A stretch of 25,013 nucleotides of DNA from an uncultured Thermoplasmata archaeon (lineage in GTDB: Archaea; Thermoplasmatota; Thermoplasmata; Halarchaeoplasmatales; Halarchaeoplasmataceae), in contig CAYNQI010000015.1 of the NCBI GenBank assembly GCA_964399335.1, forward strand, positions 1-25,013. The letters run 5' to 3'. Every line of letters starts with the position of its first letter. The stretch's first letter is position 1. A model generated the notes under the pieces. That model had not been told where the DNA came from and did not search any database. It was given only the letters and a program-made list of their open reading frames with translations. A program made the translations under genes and the position numbers. Shown here in pieces: positions 13,811-23,244 of this stretch.

Positions 13811-14326
13811 TTAGTGTTTAATTTTATCTTGTATCCTTTTAAGCACTAATAAAGAACTATCCAACTCTCCTTTTTCCATAAAGTCAATTGTTTTATTTAA
13901 CAATACTTTGAACTCTGAAAAGTCATCTTTAGATATGTCTAAATCATCATAATCTTTACTTCCCTTCTCTATACCGTCTAAAGTCTCGATCAAGGGTTCA
14001 AAGATTTCTTTAAAAGCATTGTTTATTAATTCCTCTGCTTCATCAAAATCCCCAACCTCTAGCTGTTCTCTAGCTTTACTAATCTTTTTATTGCATGCTA
14101 AAGTATTGATATCGAATTTTTCAGCCCAGAAGATCATGTTATACACCAGGGTAAATTTTTTCCTGATCTCGTTTTCAGTTTTATTTATAGTATCTTTGAT
14201 GGTAAGTTCATTTCCACAGATAGGACAAACCCTCAATTCTATCAAAATATCAGAATTACATTTTTCGCAAACAATTCCCCTTTCTTGATCATTATCGTTC
14301 TGGTTATCCATCGACTTGGATAGCAT
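13811..14326 (-). CDS. Zinc-ribbon / helical hypothetical protein
   Basis: N-terminal CEKC-x10-CPICG, followed by amphipathic helices (KKISKAREQLEVGDFDEAEELINNA; GELDSSLLVLK). Confidence 0.75.
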   Translation of the reverse strand: MLSKSMDNQNDNDQERGIVCEKCNSDILIELRVCPICGNELTIKDTINKTENEIRKKFTLVYNMIFWAEKFDINTLACNKKISKAREQLEVGDFDEAEELINNAFKEIFEPLIETLDGIEKGSKDYDDLDISKDDFSEFKVLLNKTIDFMEKGELDSSLLVLKRIQDKIKH

Positions 14327-14354: not shown

Positions 14355-15266
14355 TCAGATATCTAAATATTCTAATTCAGCTTCAAATTCATCTAAATGG
14401 TCTTTTTTTATAGTTTTTGGATCTACAGCTAAGATAAAAATACCATCTTCTATGGAAGTTATATCTTGTATCTCAAGTATCGTTTTCAAAAGATCTTGAA
14501 ATTTAAGATGAGAGAGGAGATACTCTATTCCATGAAGCATAAAGATACCTTTTTTCATTTTCATAAACGTCGAAGAAATTTTGGGTGCTTGTTTGCAAAA
14601 ATCACGAGGTTTTATAGTGTTAATATCCTCAGTTCCTTCTACAGAACTCATCCAAAAGATAGGGAATTGAATTTCTTGATGTTTATCTCTAATTTTCGAA
14701 GGAAAAATTCTAGTAAAGCATAAACCGGGTATGTCTTGTTTTAAAGCCTGTGTAAAAATTTGAAAAGTTTCACTAGCGTCTTTTGAATTATCCTGGATCA
14801 TATACGATTTACCGAAGTTTAAATCTGTTAGATCACTACTTTTCTTCTCTATACCCCGTAATTCAGAAAAATCGTCTTTAACCTTTTTATCAGATTTTAT
14901 AACTTTATAGTGTCCTTTTCGTATTTTTGCTACATGATGATCTCCTAATAGACCAGATACTATACCCGCAGTATAGCCTGCTAGAAAATGGTCATCATCG
15001 ATATTTGAATCAAATGGTTTGATCTCGATAGGATCATCTACATTGACGTCAAGTTTTGTTATACCTGAATGGATCGCGGTTAGAACGACTTTAGTTTTCA
15101 GTTCGTCATGCTCACATTTTTCTCCACTCAATTTCACGGTTTCTTTACCCCATTCGTAACCAAGATGGTATATAGCAAAGTTCGCTTCTTCTATATCCCC
15201 AATTTCTTCTATAGTCATCCGAAGATAGGGTATAATTCTTGTTGGCATCGAAACTAGGTCTGTCAT
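14355..15266 (-). CDS. V4R-like domain fused to DUF835 (degenerate KaiC/RecA-like) domain
   Basis: The N-terminal YHLGYEWGK...HSGIT...HFLAGYTAGIVSGLLG resembles the V4R core. The C-terminal SYMI...GLCFTR..P...IFWMSS...I.P...IFMLHGIEYL....F...L..I.D......ILAVDP is the DUF835 pattern. The ATG overlaps the upstream GTPase stop (ATGA). Confidence 0.75.
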   Translation of the reverse strand: MTDLVSMPTRIIPYLRMTIEEIGDIEEANFAIYHLGYEWGKETVKLSGEKCEHDELKTKVVLTAIHSGITKLDVNVDDPIEIKPFDSNIDDDHFLAGYTAGIVSGLLGDHHVAKIRKGHYKVIKSDKKVKDDFSELRGIEKKSSDLTDLNFGKSYMIQDNSKDASETFQIFTQALKQDIPGLCFTRIFPSKIRDKHQEIQFPIFWMSSVEGTEDINTIKPRDFCKQAPKISSTFMKMKKGIFMLHGIEYLLSHLKFQDLLKTILEIQDITSIEDGIFILAVDPKTIKKDHLDEFEAELEYLDI

Positions 15267-15892
15267 TTTTTATCCCTCTTTGATAATATCTTTCCTAAGG
15301 AGTGAAATGCTTCTTCTACATTTTCTCCAGTTTTAGCACTAGTAAAATAATATGGAAAATCGAATCCTACTTCTTTTTTCTTTTCTTTTGCCCAATTCCA
15401 AAGGTCCTCAGGTGAAACTCTAGAAAAGTCAGGTAGTTTATCATATACATCTTGGTAGAAGTCAATCATTTCCTTATGTTCTTTTTTTAAATAGGTTTCA
15501 ATATCCTCGTACATACTACTCTCGTAACCTTCGATGAGGTCAAATTTGTTTCCTATGATAACGAAAGGAATGTCACCTGTGATCTTGAAAACATCCGATA
15601 CCCAGTTATCGAGATTTGTAAATGTTTTGTAACGTGTTTGGTCATAAACTATAACAGCTCCATCTGCTCCTGAATAATGAGATGCATGAAGATCTTCATT
15701 CATTTTCTGGCCGTAAATATCCCAAAGAAGAAATTTTAAATCTAAATCTGGTATCTCTTTTTTCTTAACGTTGACTCCTATAGTTGCAATATATCTGTCA
15801 TCGAATTTCTGTTCAACGAATCTTCGAACCAGGGAGGTCTTTCCAACGCCCCCGTCACCTAAAAGTAAGATTTTTGCAGATTTAGATCCCAT
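15263..15892 (-). CDS. Rab-like small GTPase 1 (with an insert of about 37 aa between G4 and G5)
   Basis: G1 GDGGVGKTS, G2 ATIGV, G3 WDIYGQ, HYSGADG, G4 NKFD and G5 TSAK. Confidence 0.93.
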   Translation of the reverse strand: MGSKSAKILLLGDGGVGKTSLVRRFVEQKFDDRYIATIGVNVKKKEIPDLDLKFLLWDIYGQKMNEDLHASHYSGADGAVIVYDQTRYKTFTNLDNWVSDVFKITGDIPFVIIGNKFDLIEGYESSMYEDIETYLKKEHKEMIDFYQDVYDKLPDFSRVSPEDLWNWAKEKKKEVGFDFPYYFTSAKTGENVEEAFHSLGKILSKRDKK

Positions 15893-15913
15893 GGTATAAC
15901 AGCTTCAAGATGG

Positions 15914-15921
15914 TATAAAAA
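15914..15921 (-). promoter_or_regulatory. TATA box of the GTPase1-V4R/DUF835-Zn-ribbon operon
   Basis: Minus-strand TTTTTATA matches the archaeal TATA consensus and ends 21 nt before the ATG at 15892, consistent with a leaderless transcript. Confidence 0.55.
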
Positions 15922-16005
15922 TGTATGTAGGTATTTATCAATAAATTTATCAAAGCTGGCAAACATAAGCAAAATATAATTAATCCTAGGGTTATGAATA
16001 AGTAG

Positions 16006-16818
16006 ATGAAAGGCAAGGTTGTTAAAAGAAAGGTCAATCTATTAGGTCCTCAAGGTGTCGGTAAAACATCACTTATCATGAGATATGTTAAGAATGTTTT
16101 TGGGGATGAATACCTCAAAACTATTGGTACTAACATTTACACTAAGGACATATCATTTGAAGAAGGAGATATAAAACTAATAATTCAAGATATAATGGGA
16201 GAAAGTGGGTTTAAAACAGTTCGGGAAGGAGCTTACAAAGGCTCTACAGGGGCTATCGCTGTAGCCGATATTACTAGAACTGAAACTTTGAATAATTTAT
16301 TGAATGATTGGATCCCCAGATATAAACGGTCATCTAGTGATGACAATCCCATCTTATTAGCGGTAAACAAGTTCGATCTTGAAAGCAAAAACATATCTAC
16401 AGATCAATTAGAGGATGTTTACAATCTATTTGATCATGTCATCTTTACTTCAGCAAAGACTGGAAGGAATGTAGAATATCTTTTCAAAGAACTAGCATCT
16501 AGAGTTATATACAATATGCAGTTATCAGCTAGAGACATTGAAGATATCATTTTAAGTTATAAGTTGAATACGCCTAAAGAAATGTTAGACGCGTTGTTAT
16601 CTATAAGCTCTCATTTAGGTGAAATGCCTTATAATATACGTGAAGGTCTACTTCAAGAAAGCGGAATAAACAAATTTGATCTTGATGAAGAGATTTTCTC
16701 TATCGAAGAGGATAAGGTTTTGAAATTTGCAAATGTGTTGATGTATTGGTATGATGAAAAAGAAGTAAAACGCGCTCATAAATTGATACAAAAAGTTGTA
16801 GATGAATATAAAGATTAG
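16006..16818 (+). CDS. Rab-like small GTPase 2 with a helical C-terminal extension of about 100 aa
   Basis: G1 GPQGVGKTS, G2 KTIGT, G3 QDIMGE, AYKGSTG, G4 NKFD and G5 TSAK. Residues from about 170 to 270 form an extra domain. Confidence 0.92.
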   Translation: MKGKVVKRKVNLLGPQGVGKTSLIMRYVKNVFGDEYLKTIGTNIYTKDISFEEGDIKLIIQDIMGESGFKTVREGAYKGSTGAIAVADITRTETLNNLLNDWIPRYKRSSSDDNPILLAVNKFDLESKNISTDQLEDVYNLFDHVIFTSAKTGRNVEYLFKELASRVIYNMQLSARDIEDIILSYKLNTPKEMLDALLSISSHLGEMPYNIREGLLQESGINKFDLDEEIFSIEEDKVLKFANVLMYWYDEKEVKRAHKLIQKVVDEYKD

Positions 16819-16880
16819 AAGATTAGTTGATAAAGAGGCACAATTTACTAATAGTTGATATGACCAATTAATTAGTGAAG

Positions 16881-18719
16881 ATGAACCGAAATAGGGGGAA
16901 ATATATAACGCTCGTGGCATCTGCTGTCATATTGTTGACTCTTTTAATCAGTCCTATATATAGCTCATCACCACTAAACTTTTTTGAGGAGTCAGGTGAA
17001 GAGATAAGAACCCTTTCACAAGGACCTTGGCCATCCTTTGGTAGGGATAAAAGTAACACTCGTTTAAGTCCTTATAATACTAGTCATATAGATGGAACAT
17101 TAAACTGGAGTAGAGAAGTTGGTTTAGCAATAAGGTCATCTCCCGCTATTGGATCTAACGATGTGTTATATTATGGCGGTTACGATAATACTCTTTATGC
17201 AGTTGACGTGGATGATGGCGAGGAGAAATGGAGTTACACAACTGGTGGTATAATCATATCTTCTCCGGCTGTATCTGAAGATGAGACCATTTATTTTGGT
17301 TCTGGTGATAATCATATTTATGCTTTAAATCCCGACGGAACTTTAAAGTGGAGATATGAAACTGGAGAAGTGGTATATTCTTCTCCAACAGTAGATGAAG
17401 ATGGTAATGTTTATGTTGGGTCCTATGACGGTAATCTATATTCTATAAACGAGGATGGGGAGCTTAATTGGAAATTTAGTTCAAGATCCTGGTTATGGTC
17501 ATCACCTTCTATTTCTGAAGAAGGTATCGTCTACGTAGGTTCTGGTGATAATAATCTTTATGCTATCGATAAGACTGATGGAGCAGAATTATGGAATTAC
17601 AGCACCGGGGGTTACATCTATTCATCCCCAGCCATCGGAGAAAATGGAATATATTTTGGTTCTTATGATGGTACTCTTTATGCATTAGATCGTGATGGTG
17701 ATCTCAAATGGAATTTTGATTCTGATTCCCGTATACATTCATCTCCTGCAGTTGACCAAGAGGGGACGATTTACTTTGGTTCAAGAGATGGTGAGATGTA
17801 TGCAGTGAGGGACGGTTTAAAACTATGGTCTTTTGAAACAAGTGATGGTATCAGGTCATCTCCAGCAGTAAGTGCTGATGGTTATATCTACTTTGGTTCT
17901 TCTGATGGTTTTATTTACTCTTTGAACAGTGTTGGTGAAAAAGTTTGGTCATACGAAACTGATCGTGGTGTTTATTCATCACCTGCCATAGGTGAAGACG
18001 GGAAAATATTTGTAGGCTCTCTGGACGGAGTGATGCATTCATTTACTGGTACTGACAATGATTTGGACCTAGATATCGAGATTTGGCGTGAAGTAGAGAT
18101 CTCTGTAAAGATGTCTGGACGTATCAATAATCGATTATCAGTAGTTCTAGAAAAAGATGATGATGTATTAGAAAATATGGAATTGATTAGGGAACCAGGC
18201 AAACCACAGACAGATACGATCACTATCCGATATAAAGAGTTAAATGATTACACTTTAAATTTGGAATATTTATCTGAAGAAAAGGGTTCAAATCCTGTAT
18301 GGATAAAGTTTTCTTCCGGCAATAGGTCTAACACGATATTTGAGAATTTCAACTATTACCATGAGCAAGGACATGAGAAATCTTATGATATCAATGAAGA
18401 AATTGATGATATGGTATCGAAAGTAAGAGAAATTCATTTTTCAATAGGCGGTGAGCTGGATATAGACGAAATTTCATCTAGTGAATGGAATTTTGGTGAT
18501 GGAAACACGAGTGAAGGAGTATATGTTGTTCACAGATATTCCTCATCAGGCGTATACAATATAACCTTAAACGTGTTTTATGAGGATGGGACTATCATTT
18601 CTTTAGAAGATATTGTAATAATAGACGATAGCTTGGATGAATCATGGCATAGAAGTTATTACAGTGCAGCATCAAATGCCTACTCAAGAAGAGGATATCT
18701 AGATCTTAGACCTATATGA
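16881..18719 (+). CDS. Secreted PQQ-type/BamB-like 8-bladed beta-propeller protein with C-terminal PKD domain
   Basis: Signal peptide (MNRNRGKYITLVASAVILLTLLISPIYSS). Eight W-x-Y/F-x-T...SSPA(I/V)...IYFGS.DG.LYAL repeats at about 17106-18044. PKD motif EWNFGDG...HRYSSSGVYNITLNV at about 18482-18625. Confidence 0.9.
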   Translation: MNRNRGKYITLVASAVILLTLLISPIYSSSPLNFFEESGEEIRTLSQGPWPSFGRDKSNTRLSPYNTSHIDGTLNWSREVGLAIRSSPAIGSNDVLYYGGYDNTLYAVDVDDGEEKWSYTTGGIIISSPAVSEDETIYFGSGDNHIYALNPDGTLKWRYETGEVVYSSPTVDEDGNVYVGSYDGNLYSINEDGELNWKFSSRSWLWSSPSISEEGIVYVGSGDNNLYAIDKTDGAELWNYSTGGYIYSSPAIGENGIYFGSYDGTLYALDRDGDLKWNFDSDSRIHSSPAVDQEGTIYFGSRDGEMYAVRDGLKLWSFETSDGIRSSPAVSADGYIYFGSSDGFIYSLNSVGEKVWSYETDRGVYSSPAIGEDGKIFVGSLDGVMHSFTGTDNDLDLDIEIWREVEISVKMSGRINNRLSVVLEKDDDVLENMELIREPGKPQTDTITIRYKELNDYTLNLEYLSEEKGSNPVWIKFSSGNRSNTIFENFNYYHEQGHEKSYDINEEIDDMVSKVREIHFSIGGELDIDEISSSEWNFGDGNTSEGVYVVHRYSSSGVYNITLNVFYEDGTIISLEDIVIIDDSLDESWHRSYYSAASNAYSRRGYLDLRPI

Positions 18720-18810: not shown

Positions 18811-21800
18811 GTGCAAACTGAAGATATAATCTCGGCATGGTTGATATGCTTGTTATTTCTCCCTACAGTAGGAGCTACAAGTCCATATTCTAATGAGATC
18901 TTAGATGATGATTTGCATGATCTAGAAGTAAATATATCCCCCGAATCTGTTTTAAACACTTCACAGGAAAAGCCTAGTGATCCTATCCCATATGATGGGG
19001 AAATAGGCTTGAATTCTACACCAAAATTATCTGTTTCAGTCGATCATCCTGATGGCTTAGACATGGATGTTTCATTTTATAATAATGATACTGATCTACT
19101 TATAGAAACAGTTCACAGCGTTTCAAGCGGTGAAAGAGCAGAGGTCATTTGGAACAATCGAAACCCTGAAACTCAGTATAACTGGCATGTAGTTGTCGAT
19201 GATGGTGAAAACGAAACTGAAGGAGGTCCTTGGAGTTTTACAACGGCTGGAATCGATTATGTTGAGATCACTGACGAAGTAAATGGTACTGCTCTAGATG
19301 ACCAAGATGTACCACCAAATTTTGAGCATTGGGGATATCTTTCAACCTACAATCATACATACGGTTTTTTTGATAACCCAACAGGAGATTGGGATGCTAG
19401 TGGTGACGCAGAGCTTTTAGAGGCTAACGAATTAGGTTATAACGGGATAGATGTCGGAGATACAGCAGGAGATGTGTGGTTCAATGTTACATCATTACGT
19501 GATGGATATCAAGCTAGTGTGAAATATAATGTTATCATAGATGGTGTAGATTATATCGAGATCACCGATTCACCCGGAGGTCAATCTCTAGATGATGAAT
19601 CCGTCGAGATCGGTCATCGGGTAAGAGGATATTGTTCAGTATACAATGAATCTAGCGGTTATCTTTATACTGTTGAAGGCAATTGGTCTGCAGAAGGTGG
19701 AGACTCTTTTTTACTCGAAGAGAGTACAAACGAATCCAATGTCATAGATGTAGGTTACGAAGCTGGTCCGGTCTGGTTAAACCTTAGTTACGAAGAATTT
19801 TCTGATAGTGTCCAATTCGAAGTTCTCACACCTGAACCAGATGAAATAATAATCACTTCAGAACCAGATGGAGAACCAGTAATCTATGGAGAAGTGCCAG
19901 TTGGATACGAGGTATGGGGTGATGCATCAGGTTACAACGAAACTTCAGGGTATATAGGTACAGTTGAAGTAGACTGGAGTGTTGAATACGAGGAAGGCAT
20001 GGATCCAACTTTAGGACCGTCGCCTTCAGAAGCAAGCTGGATTGATGTAGGAACTTCTTCGGGAGAGCTCGAATGGAAAGCATCTTACTCAAGGAATAAC
20101 TACTGGGTAAATGATACGGTTGTATTTGTTGTTGAACCTCCAAATATAGATCACATCGGGATCACAGATGATGGCGAGGAGATATCAGGAGGTTCCGTAC
20201 CAGTGAACCATACGGAGGAAGTAGAACTATCCGCTTTTAATGAAACCTCAGGTTTTATTGAATTTGTTAACGGTGATTGGACCGTGGAAGGCGGTGATGC
20301 ATTTTTACTCAACGGTACTTCGGGAACTGAAAATATAATAAATGTGGGAACTATACCTGGGGAAGTTGTTCTCACTGCCCAATATAACGATTTTGAGGAT
20401 GAAGTCGTTTTCGACGTAAAGGACCCTACGATAGACCATATCTTTATCGTAAAAAACAAGGAAGAGCCGACAGATTCAATCATTGAAGATATCAATCTAG
20501 ATGCAGGAGAAGATTTGAGAGGTTACTCTGCTGGATTTAATGATACAATAGGGTTTGTTGAACTGGTGGAGGTTGACTGGTTCGTTGAAAACTACGACGG
20601 AGCTGAAGCTGAGGTCAGCCCTAGTACAGGTAACACTAGTGTATTTCAAGCTGGTCCGTATGGTGGCGAAGCTGAGTGGATAGCTGAATATTATGATTCC
20701 ATTAATTTCACTGTATCTGTAAGTATCAATGCACCGTCTATCGATAAAATTCAATTGATGGACGAAGCGGGTGGGACCGGTAGTGTGGTTGAAAACATCA
20801 CTTTAGACCTGGATGAAAACATCACATTGTATTCAGCTGGATATAATTACACATTCGGTTATCAAAGGGATGTTGAGTGTGAATGGATTTTGGATAACGA
20901 TGAGATCGGTTACTTAAATGAAACTTTTAGTGAAACATCTACATTTTTTTCTAGTGGATTGGGTGCCGGCAGTATTACAGTTCATCACGGGATGATCTAT
21001 AACTCTTCTACAATAGAGGTAGTTGATTACAGAACTCCAAAAATCCAGGGTGAAATACCAGATTTAGAACTTGAGAAGGATTTTGGAATTCATGAGATCG
21101 ATTTATCCGATCTCGCCTTTGATGAACATGATACTCTATCAGAGATGGAATGGTATATTACGGGATACAACAGTAACGTGATCTCAGTTTATGGCGAGAA
21201 TCAAACAGGGAACCATATAATATCCCTTTTATCCAGGGAGAATGCAGTTGGTTCGATGGAAGTTACATATTGGCTTGTAAACAGTGCTGGTAACAAAGCT
21301 TCTCAAAGGGCATGGATAAATGTGACCACTATTTATGAATCACCAGAGATCAGAAGATGTCCAGATCTATATGTTTTACATGATGAACCTTACCGATTCG
21401 ATTATTCTCCTTACATAATTTATGATGAAAATCGGTTTGATGAGTTAATCTTAGAGACCGATGATACTGAATATACTGATGTCAGAGGTTTGAGAGTAAC
21501 CTATGAATACCCAAGAAGTATGCTTGGTGAAGAGAGATTGGTCACCATCACGGTTTCTGACGGTCAGGAAAGTGTTTCAACAACGATCACAGTCACAGTC
21601 ACATCTAATACACCCCCTGTTGAAGTAGAAAAGTTACCTGATTTAACGATAGATCAGGGTGAGACTAAAGAGAGCGTTTTTGATCTAGATGATTATTTTG
21701 AAGATCCAGATGGTGATCCACTTTACATGAGTTATGGTTATACATACTTGACGATCACTATACATGACGACCATACAGTTGATATCCGTGCAGATGGGAA

Positions 21801-23244
21801 CTGGCATGGGGTCGAGAGGGTGACATTTAGAGCTAAAGATCCTGTTGGGGCCATTGTAGAACAGACTATCAATGTAACAGTTTTCCCTGTAAATTATCCT
21901 CCTGAGATCAAAGAGCTACCACCGTTTGTAGTTCGATACGATGAGCCCTATGTTTTCGACTTAGAATTCTATATCAATGACCCTGATAACGAAACTCATG
22001 AATTGACCATAACTACAGATAGTCCAGACCATGTTTCGGTAAGTGGTACTAAATTGATCATGAACTACCCCAGAGAATTAGGTGATATGGAGGTCAATTA
22101 TACAGTACCTTTAGAGGTGTATGTATCAGACGGGATCGATAGCGTTTCAGAGGTCACCACCGTTAAGGTAGGGACCTACTATCCTCCAGAACTAGTTATA
22201 CCTCTTCATGATGTAGCATTCAAAGAAAATGAACGATTGATCAATGCTTTCGAACTAGACAATCATTTTTTAGATAGACAAAATGATACTATGTATTTTA
22301 GCTCGGGGAATGAAAACATAGAGGTTGTTATCCATGAAAATAGCTCAGTTGATTTTTATGCTCCAGAAAATTGGAATGGCCAAGAATTGATAACGATCAG
22401 AGCAACTAATTCTGTTGGTGCATTGATGGAAGATTCATTAACTGTTACGGTAATACCAGTTAATAACCCACCAAAGATTTCCGATATACCTTTACAGGAA
22501 GGTGTCGTTGGTCAGAGTTGGATACTTGATATAGACCATTACATATCAGATATAGATAACGAATCTCACGAGTTGGAAGTGATCGTTGATGACCCTAATG
22601 TTCAAGTTTTTGGCCATAAACTATTATTTGAATACGACGATCCTGGCGAATATAATGTAACAATCATGGTCAGTGATGGTTTGGATACTACTACAGGTTA
22701 TTTAGAAGTTAAGGTTGTAGATGATGAAAGTAGCGATATTGCAAATCTTTTATTTTTATTAGGCTTAATCCCAATCGGTATAGTCGGTGCTGTTTTTTAT
22801 TTGAGAAAGACTAAATATACTATAGAAGATATCTTTTTGATACATGATTCTGGGGTTTTAATTAAACACATCACAAGGACATTAAAGGCTGAAAGAGATG
22901 AAGATATATTGGCCGGCATGTTCACCGCAGTGCAAAATTTTGTAGATGATGCCTTCGCTGAAAATGATAGTGAAAGTTTGAAAAAGATGGAATACGGTGA
23001 CAAAAAGGTCCTTGTTCATAAAGGTAAACATGTCATTTTAGCCGTCTTTATTTCTGGAGACGAACCTAAATGGACTCTAGAAGGGATGAAAAACCTCGTG
23101 TCAGATATAGAAGAAAGGTATGGTGAATCCGTCGAAAACTATTCTGGAGATATCAGTGAATTAAAAGATATTGAAAACATACTTAAATCCCTCCATCAAG
23201 GCAGAGGAAAGTATCGTCAAGGGGATTGGAAGAAGTATAAATGA
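18811..23244 (+). CDS. Giant single-pass surface glycoprotein: signal peptide, FN3/Ig-like domain, 6 repeats of about 100 aa, 6 cadherin-like repeats, TM helix, cytoplasmic longin-like domain
   Basis: GTG start 7 nt after GAGGT. Repeats are visible by eye. TM IANLLFLLGLIPIGIVGAVFYL (about 22738-22803) is followed by RKTK. The C-terminal region of about 135 aa has longin secondary-structure order. Confidence 0.88.
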   Translation: MQTEDIISAWLICLLFLPTVGATSPYSNEILDDDLHDLEVNISPESVLNTSQEKPSDPIPYDGEIGLNSTPKLSVSVDHPDGLDMDVSFYNNDTDLLIETVHSVSSGERAEVIWNNRNPETQYNWHVVVDDGENETEGGPWSFTTAGIDYVEITDEVNGTALDDQDVPPNFEHWGYLSTYNHTYGFFDNPTGDWDASGDAELLEANELGYNGIDVGDTAGDVWFNVTSLRDGYQASVKYNVIIDGVDYIEITDSPGGQSLDDESVEIGHRVRGYCSVYNESSGYLYTVEGNWSAEGGDSFLLEESTNESNVIDVGYEAGPVWLNLSYEEFSDSVQFEVLTPEPDEIIITSEPDGEPVIYGEVPVGYEVWGDASGYNETSGYIGTVEVDWSVEYEEGMDPTLGPSPSEASWIDVGTSSGELEWKASYSRNNYWVNDTVVFVVEPPNIDHIGITDDGEEISGGSVPVNHTEEVELSAFNETSGFIEFVNGDWTVEGGDAFLLNGTSGTENIINVGTIPGEVVLTAQYNDFEDEVVFDVKDPTIDHIFIVKNKEEPTDSIIEDINLDAGEDLRGYSAGFNDTIGFVELVEVDWFVENYDGAEAEVSPSTGNTSVFQAGPYGGEAEWIAEYYDSINFTVSVSINAPSIDKIQLMDEAGGTGSVVENITLDLDENITLYSAGYNYTFGYQRDVECEWILDNDEIGYLNETFSETSTFFSSGLGAGSITVHHGMIYNSSTIEVVDYRTPKIQGEIPDLELEKDFGIHEIDLSDLAFDEHDTLSEMEWYITGYNSNVISVYGENQTGNHIISLLSRENAVGSMEVTYWLVNSAGNKASQRAWINVTTIYESPEIRRCPDLYVLHDEPYRFDYSPYIIYDENRFDELILETDDTEYTDVRGLRVTYEYPRSMLGEERLVTITVSDGQESVSTTITVTVTSNTPPVEVEKLPDLTIDQGETKESVFDLDDYFEDPDGDPLYMSYGYTYLTITIHDDHTVDIRADGNWHGVERVTFRAKDPVGAIVEQTINVTVFPVNYPPEIKELPPFVVRYDEPYVFDLEFYINDPDNETHELTITTDSPDHVSVSGTKLIMNYPRELGDMEVNYTVPLEVYVSDGIDSVSEVTTVKVGTYYPPELVIPLHDVAFKENERLINAFELDNHFLDRQNDTMYFSSGNENIEVVIHENSSVDFYAPENWNGQELITIRATNSVGALMEDSLTVTVIPVNNPPKISDIPLQEGVVGQSWILDIDHYISDIDNESHELEVIVDDPNVQVFGHKLLFEYDDPGEYNVTIMVSDGLDTTTGYLEVKVVDDESSDIANLLFLLGLIPIGIVGAVFYLRKTKYTIEDIFLIHDSGVLIKHITRTLKAERDEDILAGMFTAVQNFVDDAFAENDSESLKKMEYGDKKVLVHKGKHVILAVFISGDEPKWTLEGMKNLVSDIEERYGESVENYSGDISELKDIENILKSLHQGRGKYRQGDWKKYK

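Follow-up and report, generated by a model that had tools for sequence, protein, structure and literature searches.

How could a giant protein on the surface of an archaeal cell be connected to small GTPases in its cytoplasm? This question is raised by a gene in a stretch of DNA from an uncultured Thermoplasmata archaeon (25,013 nucleotides, in the following called the window, i.e. positions 1 to 25,013 of contig CAYNQI010000015.1, GenBank assembly GCA_964399335.1, forward strand), which encodes a single-pass membrane protein with a C-terminal tail predicted to have a longin fold and which is located close to two genes for Rab-like GTPases. Pairs of longin or roadblock domains with small GTPases are regarded as 'eukaryotic signature' parts, which Asgard archaea have in common with eukaryotes. 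What our analysis points to is a putative longin-fold family with thousands of relatives. In this non-Asgard archaeon, a member of the family is fixed to the membrane below a giant surface protein and is linked to genes for Rab-like GTPases.

A large surface protein with a small, putatively cytoplasmic tail

According to the list of open reading frames and the translation, the open frame at 18811-23244 (+) encodes a protein of 1477 amino acids with a four-part layout, i.e. a signal-peptide-like start, an acidic ectodomain, one transmembrane (TM) helix followed by RKTK and a tail of 146 residues. The features of the gene, including those derived from an AlphaFold2 (AF2) model and from an alignment (A1) that are described below, are as follows.

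18811..23244, + strand: single-pass surface protein with a putatively cytoplasmic, predicted longin-fold tail, whole gene (open reading frame list, translation)
18811..18876, + strand: signal-peptide-like N-terminus, hydrophobic core and then VGA (conserved in orthologues; cleavage site inferred)
18877..22740, + strand: ectodomain of ~1290 residues with Ig/cadherin-like repeats (Pfam Big_9, E 3.7e-8; Cadherin_4, E 2.5e-5)
22741..22803, + strand: single TM helix ANLLFLLGLIPIGIVGAVFYL (translation)
22804..22818, + strand: basic juxtamembrane linker RKTKY, five residues from the TM helix to strand 1 (translation; AF2 model)
22819..23199, + strand: predicted longin-fold domain b-b-a-b-b-b-a-a, tail residues 6-132 (AF2, Foldseek, VIA-align)
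23200..23244, + strand: C-terminal basic/aromatic peptide G-K-Y-x-x-G-D-W-K-K and stop codon (alignment A1)

The hydrophobic N-terminal segment is kept in the orthologues P0155-P0160, P0005 and P0006. The ectodomain is strongly acidic (259 D+E versus 48 K+R) and contains 34 N-X-S/T sequons, whereas charges are balanced in the tail (nt 22804-23241). A preliminary description made from the sequence of the window had spoken of an extracellular adhesin of ~1300 residues; an ectodomain of about this size is indeed present, whereas the term 'adhesin' can be deduced from the Ig/cadherin-like repeats only. The translation also bears out that a TM helix and then a basic RKTK linker precede the tail.

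On which side of the membrane the tail resides is suggested by its relatives. A TM helix is found at most 45 residues upstream of the domain in 95 of the best 150 of 3979 relatives, and across these 95 proteins the net charge averages -0.6 ahead of the helix and +1.7 behind it, with a basic linker after the TM helix being the rule among these best 150 relatives. Because the net charge is positive after the helix and negative before it, the positive-inside rule, together with the composition of the two parts, places the tail in the cytoplasm, i.e. where the preliminary description had also put it.

Tail and ectodomain differ in their rates of change. Orthologues in metagenome-assembled genomes (MAGs) of Thermoplasmatota show 60-88% identity in the tail, and at three distances the identities of tail and ectodomain are 77% versus 64-69%, 60-64% versus 39-51% and ~40% versus 29-32%, i.e. 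the ectodomain evolves faster than the tail at every distance sampled. The conservation includes the very end of the protein, with the C-terminal peptide G-[KR]-Y-x-x-G-D-W-[KR] recurring in orthologues as well as in distant members of A1 (e.g. P0004, P0050, P0038 and P0097); this peptide (23200-23241) might serve as a short linear motif or as a tip that binds the membrane.

The tail is predicted to have a longin fold

For structure prediction we used an alignment, A1, that consists of 29 rows, i.e. paralogues from the same genome and short relatives. AF2 run on A1 yielded a model of the tail with a predicted local distance difference test (pLDDT) value of 88.9 and a predicted template modelling (pTM) value of 0.84, with all five models having pLDDT values of 86-89; a model based on the single sequence (pLDDT 45) was discarded. 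In the A1-based model, DSSP assigns strands to tail residues 6-14 (TIEDIFLIH), 19-24 (VLIKHI), 59-64 (LKKMEY), 67-73 and 77-84, and helices to residues 33-53, 89-111 and 123-132. This reproduces every one of the elements b1-b2-a1-b3-b4-b5-a2-a3 that had been named from the sequence. There is no helix before strand 1, and the TM helix ends five residues ahead of this strand. Invariant positions in A1 are G17, L19, D32 and A42, and further conserved features are a helix motif, D-x-D-I-x-x-G-M-x-x-A-x-x-x-F, and an aromatic-x-G-D loop.

The closest known structures are longin domains. In a Foldseek search against the PDB, the leading matches were zeta-COP, AP sigma, sedlin, Sec22b (TM-score 0.74, root mean square deviation 3.0), Ykt6 and Mon1-Ccz1. 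A VIA-align scan of the entire PDB (48,161 chains), which is independent of Foldseek, gave Z scores of 12.8 for VAMP7, 12.7 for Sec22, 12.6 for AP2 sigma, 12.4 for sedlin, 11.9 for Fuzzy/CPLANE and 10.3 for a Lokiarchaeota longin (8yqg). All of the top 25 rows are longin-fold domains (Z 12.8-9.9, 116-137 residues aligned), whereas roadblock/MglB/LAMTOR matches reach Z scores of 8.3-9.2 over 91-101 residues without the last helix, i.e. they cover about 30 residues fewer, and no GAF, PAS or profilin entries appear among the 50 matches listed. A comparison of longin with roadblock, profilin and GAF folds, which the preliminary description had proposed as a check, thus comes out with longins first in both Foldseek and VIA-align. 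A longin fold of the tail is therefore supported, as far as a predicted model can tell.

At the level of sequence families, by contrast with this structural likeness, the tail stands apart. It has no match in Pfam at E <= 10 and none in NCBIfam, it does not significantly match the curated longin families (Pfam Longin, Sybindin, Sedlin_N, Clat_adaptor_s, Fuz_longin_1), and sequence and profile searches of the PDB returned chance-level matches only (ISWI, de novo helical bundles). There is a sub-threshold echo of Fuz_longin_1 in two of the 29 members of A1 (best E 7.8e-4), and Robl_LC7 is touched by three of them (E >= 0.04); the cluster of language-model neighbours of the tail bears the name Roadblock/LAMTOR2, and 22% of its members match Fuz_longin_1. 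Judged by these searches, the tail is not a member of any curated longin sequence family. Membership in Roadblock/LC7 (MglB-like) was rejected given the missing N-terminal helix, the weak Robl_LC7 match and the shorter and weaker structural matches. The tail was also rejected as a longin SNARE, as its TM helix comes ahead of the longin fold and helix 3 is followed by no more than 14 residues.

A large family with a predominant receptor-type architecture

A phmmer search of 1.84 billion cluster representatives with the tail retrieved 3979 relatives at E <= 0.001, 1717 of them with E <= 1e-10. This is well beyond a chance result, i.e. the tail belongs to a large family for which there is no Pfam or NCBIfam model. 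The receptor-type architecture is not unique to the gene in the window; it is the commonest form of this family. In 84 of the 95 TM-adjacent cases (best 150 relatives), the domain is the C-terminus of a large secreted protein and follows a TM helix and a basic linker. Ectodomains above the domain include Big_9/cadherin-like Ig, PKD, fn3, He_PIG and PQQ beta-propeller repeats, and the only public names of family proteins are 'Ig-like domain-containing', 'PQQ-binding-like beta-propeller repeat' and 'hypothetical'. Other architectures are four TM helices and then two tandem copies of the domain (~570 residues), soluble giants of ~2300 residues with two or three copies, a fusion to DUF835 and insertions into AAA_16 ATPases, which include an AAA ATPase of Heimdallarchaeota (P0111).

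The genome that contains the window (1.57 Mb, 80% complete) encodes seven copies of the domain. The copy in the window is the only membrane tail and the other six are soluble. In at least five of these six, the domain either lies between Walker A and Walker B of STAND-type AAA_16+TPR proteins of ~1000 residues or heads a TPR protein; in the sixth, the contig end cuts the gene after Walker A and the domain. In five paralogues the domain follows Walker A (GxxGxGK[ST]R), and the four that are long enough show its insertion before Walker B (LxDLxWxD). Their locations are:

C21:5968-9072, C48:1165-4284, C88 and C117 (loci L002-L004 and L006-L008): STAND-type paralogues with the domain, same genome

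In addition, two family members elsewhere are encoded next to genes for FEN1-type flap endonucleases, i.e. a protein of 575 residues with four TM helices and two tandem domains (L042:266-3029) and a soluble protein of 2373 residues with two domains and a DUF5915 end (L045:5319-13499). This position may be conserved or a coincidence.

Genes for the domain are linked to genes for Ras-family GTPases

Two Rab-like GTPase genes had been noticed ~6 kb from the tail; Pfam assigns both to the Ras family, and the receptor gene starts 2-3 kb away from them.

15263..15892, - strand: Ras-family GTPase 1, 209 residues (Pfam Ras, E 2.2e-34)
15893..16005, no strand: divergent intergenic region between the two GTPase genes, 113 bp (coordinates of the open reading frames)
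16006..16818, + strand: Ras-family GTPase 2, 270 residues (Pfam Ras, E 2.8e-30)

GTPase 1, whose gene is conserved in nine related loci, has the G3 motif WDIYGQ (with DIYGQ kept), about 40 extra residues between G4 (NKFD) and G5 (SAK), and a polybasic C-terminus (SKRDKK). GTPase 2 has DIMGE as G3, i.e. it is without the catalytic glutamine, and carries a helical C-terminal extension of ~100 residues. Its gene opens a rightward string, and this position ahead of the receptor gene is conserved in L013, L017 and L029. According to the translations, neither GTPase has a C-terminal cysteine.

Beyond the window, the same genome again combines the two kinds of genes. Four of its five Ras-family genes are located within 3 kb of a gene for the domain, at two loci, i.e. 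in the window and on contig C69, with the fifth being on a contig of 1.9 kb. On C69 (C69:48-4178, L010), a gene for a longin+TPR protein of 788 residues is flanked by a divergent Ras gene (277 residues) at 93 nt and a convergent one (282 residues) at a gap of 916 nt, and both of these GTPases have C-terminal extensions like that of GTPase 2. In a permutation in which three loci were placed at random, the probability of finding two or more of them at most 3 kb away from a family gene was ~0.0015.

Related loci from other species were surveyed over a range of tail identities from 87% to 29%. A Ras-family gene is present within 10 kb in 18 of the 20 loci (out of 31) that have enough flanking sequence. 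The arrangements vary: the order is GTPase, propeller, receptor in the window, the GTPase is directly upstream of the receptor in L031, and in a Methanomassiliicoccales chromosome (CP070739.1; L036:5780-13893) a receptor of 1706 residues is followed by three tandem Ras-family genes (278, 290 and 298 residues). Across 81 Thermoplasmatota genomes that were sampled evenly, with the Ras family scored at E <= 1e-15, the domain occurs in 18 genomes and the Ras family in 18, with both in 17 and neither in 62, and the two exceptions are weak matches. This co-occurrence is all-or-none in ~9 taxonomic families and does not track genome size, as some genomes of 1.4 Mb have both and several of 3-4.5 Mb have neither. 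Overall, the link to GTPases is much stronger than could be known from the sequence of the window.

A bacterial counterpart in Group 1 Rup loci

Searching 72,556 plasmid records with the tail (tblastn) revealed matches in four plasmid or chromid records, i.e. one of Mesorhizobium, two of Rhizobium and one of Nostoc flagelliforme. The identity is 30%, the aligned part amounts to 77-86% of the tail, and the E values range from 4e-13 to 5e-15. All four records also match GTPase 1, at a distance of 1-2.6 kb from the tail match; the bacterial genes are 30% identical to GTPase 1 and are annotated as 'Rab family GTPase' in the two records that have a gene call. In both of these records the gene order starts with a hypothetical protein, an 'OmpA family protein' and the 'Rab family GTPase'; next comes an adenylate/guanylate cyclase in Mesorhizobium, and in Nostoc a second, small hypothetical protein and then an ATP-binding protein that is possibly a kinase. 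In the Mesorhizobium protein, the A1 profile matches residues 190-323 (E 2e-32), with the sole TM helix (325) following directly, and in the Nostoc protein it matches residues 309-441 (E 2e-28), ahead of a TM helix at 448. Beyond the TM helix the bacterial proteins have BON and OmpA domains; the bacterial version of the domain itself has no match in Pfam or NCBIfam.

These OmpA-type/GTPase loci are the Group 1 Rup (Rup1) neighbourhood (PMC4316618). The bacterial counterpart of the architecture was thus already described in 2014 by Wuichet and Sogaard-Andersen, with the domain of the Group 1 Rup membrane component called 'of unknown function' and its longin fold not recognized (PMC4316618). Like the tail in the window, the domain in the Rup1 membrane component is directly adjacent to a single TM helix, and in both cases the gene resides beside one for a Rab/Rup-type GTPase, which is directly downstream in the bacteria and 2-3 kb away in the window. 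Rup1 GTPases are without the G3 glutamine (PMC4316618), which is also absent from GTPase 2, whereas GTPase 1 keeps it. The polarity, however, is reversed: the bacterial proteins have the order cytoplasmic domain, TM helix and periplasmic BON/OmpA, and the protein in the window has the order Ig-like ectodomain, TM helix and cytoplasmic domain. Moreover, a peptidoglycan-binding OmpA domain is present in the Rup1 proteins, whereas Pfam finds Big_9 and Cadherin_4 instead of it in the window protein.

The companions differ as well. DUF835, zinc-ribbon and beta-propeller proteins take the place of the Rup1 companions in the cluster of the window; neither its DUF835 nor its zinc-ribbon protein has BLASTP similarity to the Rup1 coiled-coil protein or the N-terminal region of the cyclase (E >= 0.4), and no output enzyme (GGDEF/EAL, cyclase or histidine kinase) is encoded within the window. 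Only the pair of a longin-type membrane protein and a GTPase is common to the archaeal and bacterial systems.

A membrane-fixed platform for GTPases?

What could this tail do? We consider it somewhat more likely than not that it is a docking and regulatory platform, fixed to the membrane, for the neighbouring Rab/Rup-like GTPases, which it would couple to the ectodomain. What the analysis shows is how the tail is predicted to fold, on which side of the membrane it is placed, how large its family is, that the domain is linked to Ras-family genes both phyletically and physically, and that it is homologous to the membrane component of Rup1. Direct binding of the GTPases, dimerization, the direction of signalling and the role as a guanine nucleotide exchange factor (GEF), a GTPase-activating protein (GAP) or a scaffold are inferred only. 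With only five basic residues between the TM helix and the domain, the latter should be located directly against the inner face of the membrane, and it is flush against the membrane whichever end is tethered, i.e. in the archaeal C-terminal tail as well as in the bacterial form that precedes the TM helix. The tail would recruit the Rab/Rup-like GTPases encoded beside the receptor gene, and as these are without a lipid-anchor motif, it would thereby give them a place at the membrane. It might also contribute to a GEF or GAP, for which it would probably dimerize in the way of the longins of Mon1-Ccz1, TRAPP and FLCN-FNIP or of the roadblock protein MglB, and events at the Ig-like ectodomain might in this way be coupled to an intracellular GTPase switch.

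Several points weigh against such a platform. The tail shares a sequence identity of only 4-14% with solved longins in the VIA-align comparison, and the same fold is no proof of the same function. Kinship among the genomes of the phyletic count means that its statistics overstate independence. In a hand count in the same sample of 81 genomes, which is inflated by related genomes and deflated by fragmented assemblies, no more than about 15-17 of 96 Ras genes are at most 10 kb away from a family gene, and ~10 directly adjoin one, with a rough chance expectation of 7% and 2%, respectively. Most family members are not beside a GTPase gene, and no GTPase neighbour was found for P0026 (four TM helices and tandem domains), P0107 (a soluble protein of 2373 residues) and P0022 (a DUF835 fusion). 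Finally, the insertion of the domain into STAND-type AAA_16-TPR ATPases fits a general protein-interaction module equally well.

The last point leads to the main rival explanation, i.e. that the tail is a general homo- or heterodimerization module that links the receptor to proteins with the same domain, above all the six AAA_16/TPR STAND-type paralogues, with GTPases acting downstream or only in some systems. Longin and roadblock domains are typically dimers (PMC10933270), a single membrane-tail copy coexists in the genome with six soluble ones that are mostly inside ATPases, an ATPase of Heimdallarchaeota shows the same insertion, and family genes are mostly found away from GTPase genes. Yet a pure dimerization module would leave unexplained why the domain co-occurs nearly perfectly with Ras-family genes and why the adjacency to a GTPase gene is conserved in archaea and bacteria, with no STAND paralogue among the annotated neighbours there, and we therefore regard it as a rather unlikely explanation if taken alone. 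As a heterodimeric longin platform could bind a GTPase, dimerization is nevertheless compatible with a role of the tail as a platform.

Biogenesis or sorting, and also ligand sensing, seem less likely. The SRX longin domain of signal recognition particle (SRP) receptor alpha works with the SR-beta GTPase, and longin SNAREs act in sorting. By analogy, the tail and the GTPases could help to make or position the giant surface protein (targeting, insertion, or sorting to a pole or into vesicles) rather than act in signalling, which would agree with SRX/SR-beta being among the structural matches (VIA-align Z 8.7-9.8) and with almost all carriers of the domain being very large secreted proteins (500-5000 residues). 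We find this improbable, however: the bacterial homologues reside in operons with cyclase or histidine-kinase output genes (PMC4316618), which indicates signalling rather than biogenesis, the soluble STAND and DUF835 fusions need no targeting, and most large surface proteins of these genomes would presumably be without such a tail. Even further down the scale of probability is a small-molecule or lipid sensor similar to PAS, GAF or profilin domains, whose likeness to longins would reflect a common ancient core only. Longin, roadblock, profilin and GAF domains do have a five-stranded core in common (PMC4917890, PMC10933270), and a domain flat against the membrane might be well placed for such a task, but the structural matches listed above point to longins rather than to any of these sensor folds, and the linkage to GTPases would be left unexplained.

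Relation to known longin and roadblock systems

Longin dimers form the catalytic or docking core of GEFs and GAPs of eukaryotic Rab, Rag and Arf GTPases, and roadblock MglB plays the equivalent role for MglA (PMC10933270). The eukaryotic platforms (TRAPP Bet5/Trs23/sedlin, Mon1-Ccz1, Fuzzy-Inturned, FLCN-FNIP, and AP/COPI sigma and zeta) have the same fold as the model of the tail (120-135 residues, Z 9.9-12.6), and the eukaryotic longin-GTPase platforms are, like the tail, tied to Ras-superfamily GTPases, in the window by genetic linkage. They are subunits of soluble complexes, whereas the tail in the window is covalently anchored in the membrane under a giant ectodomain. The longin SNAREs VAMP7, Sec22b and Ykt6 are the best single structural matches (Z 11.1-12.8) and, like the protein in the window, are membrane proteins with a longin domain on the cytoplasmic side; however, SNAREs have the order longin domain, SNARE motif and C-terminal anchor, whereas in the window protein the TM helix comes first and there is no SNARE coiled coil. 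MglB/MglA and the Asgard roadblock/longin proteins (PMC10933270; PDB 8yqg, 9jq8, 7f8m) share the superfold and are examples of a prokaryotic regulator beside a small GTPase, with the helix-first order of roadblock domains (a-b-b-a-b-b-b) being absent from the tail. In the publications covered, archaeal longins are assigned to Asgard archaea and described as soluble or fused to GTPases, i.e. neither as receptor tails nor from Thermoplasmatota (PMC4917890, PMC10933270, PMC10936438).

What would it mean if the tail bound or regulated a GTPase? It would be the first candidate for a partner and membrane anchor of prokaryotic Rup/Rab-like GTPases, it would offer a simple wiring from receptor to switch that can be tested in culturable bacteria (Mesorhizobium, Nostoc), and the origin of the partnership between longins and GTPases would move back beyond the Asgard archaea. 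A still wider and tentative proposal, which we hold to be possible though probably too far-reaching, is that a receptor with a membrane-apposed longin domain and a Rab/Rup-like GTPase form an ancient prokaryotic signalling unit of Thermoplasmatota, Asgard archaea and bacteria, in which the neighbouring GTPase would have the tail as its cognate platform (GEF or GAP), controlled by the ectodomain, and from which eukaryotes would have inherited their longin-GTPase partnership, rather than this having arisen in Asgard archaea or eukaryotes. In practical terms, binding or regulation of the GTPase by the tail would also justify an entry for a new domain family, through which thousands of proteins now called 'hypothetical' or 'Ig-like domain-containing' would receive an annotation. 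For Lokiarchaeum, a longin census by Klinger et al. from 2016 reportedly lists 41 longin-like domains. With this census outside its coverage, a non-exhaustive full-text literature search found no published description of a longin-fold receptor tail, of the family in Thermoplasmatota or of the homology between the archaeal and bacterial proteins.

Gene neighbourhood in the window

The gene content of the window is archaeal and includes PCNA, the RFC small subunit and a folE2-type GTP cyclohydrolase. Its nearest named records, Candidatus Saliniplasma and Candidatus Natronoplasma, are MAGs of Thermoplasmatota that come from sediments of soda lakes and hypersaline settings, and an Asgard origin of the window was rejected on these grounds. 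Three further genes belong to the cluster:

16875..18719, + strand: secreted PQQ-type beta-propeller and PKD protein, encoded downstream of GTPase 2 and upstream of the receptor (Pfam Beta-prop_ACSF4, PQQ_2, PKD)
14355..15266, - strand: DUF835 (inactivated KaiC-like) protein with an N-terminal domain of 160 residues without assignment (Pfam DUF835, E 1.3e-21)
13811..14326, - strand: zinc-ribbon protein, 171 residues (weak DZR_2 match)

Two strings of genes thus diverge from the 113-bp region, i.e. GTPase 2, propeller/PKD protein and receptor on one strand (gaps of 56 and 91 nt), and GTPase 1, DUF835 protein (4-nt overlap) and zinc-ribbon protein on the other. The propeller/PKD protein has an N-terminal hydrophobic anchor and neither a C-terminal TM helix nor a tail; in related genomes similar propellers have a TM helix and a longin tail of their own (P0020, P0177 and P0180), i.e. 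both split and fused forms of propeller and tail exist. The zinc-ribbon gene is syntenic in L013, L015 and L029. The Methanomassiliicoccales receptor (L036) carries a C-terminal double zinc ribbon fused behind its longin tail, which ties the separate zinc-ribbon gene of the window to the same system.

The gene for the DUF835 protein is syntenic in nine loci. The N-terminal half of this protein (14787-15266, - strand) has no match in Pfam even at E 10, which includes the V4R domain, the V4R matches of this genome being elsewhere. That it might be a copy of the tail domain was ruled out by hhalign (probability 0.8%). The genome also has five true Robl_LC7 genes, none of them at this locus. On contig C7 (C7:1925-2358), away from any Ras-family gene, a V4R gene (E 1.5e-9) adjoins a Roadblock/LC7 gene (E 4.6e-11), and to judge from these domain matches, a TRAPP-like part and a GTPase regulator are paired here as well.

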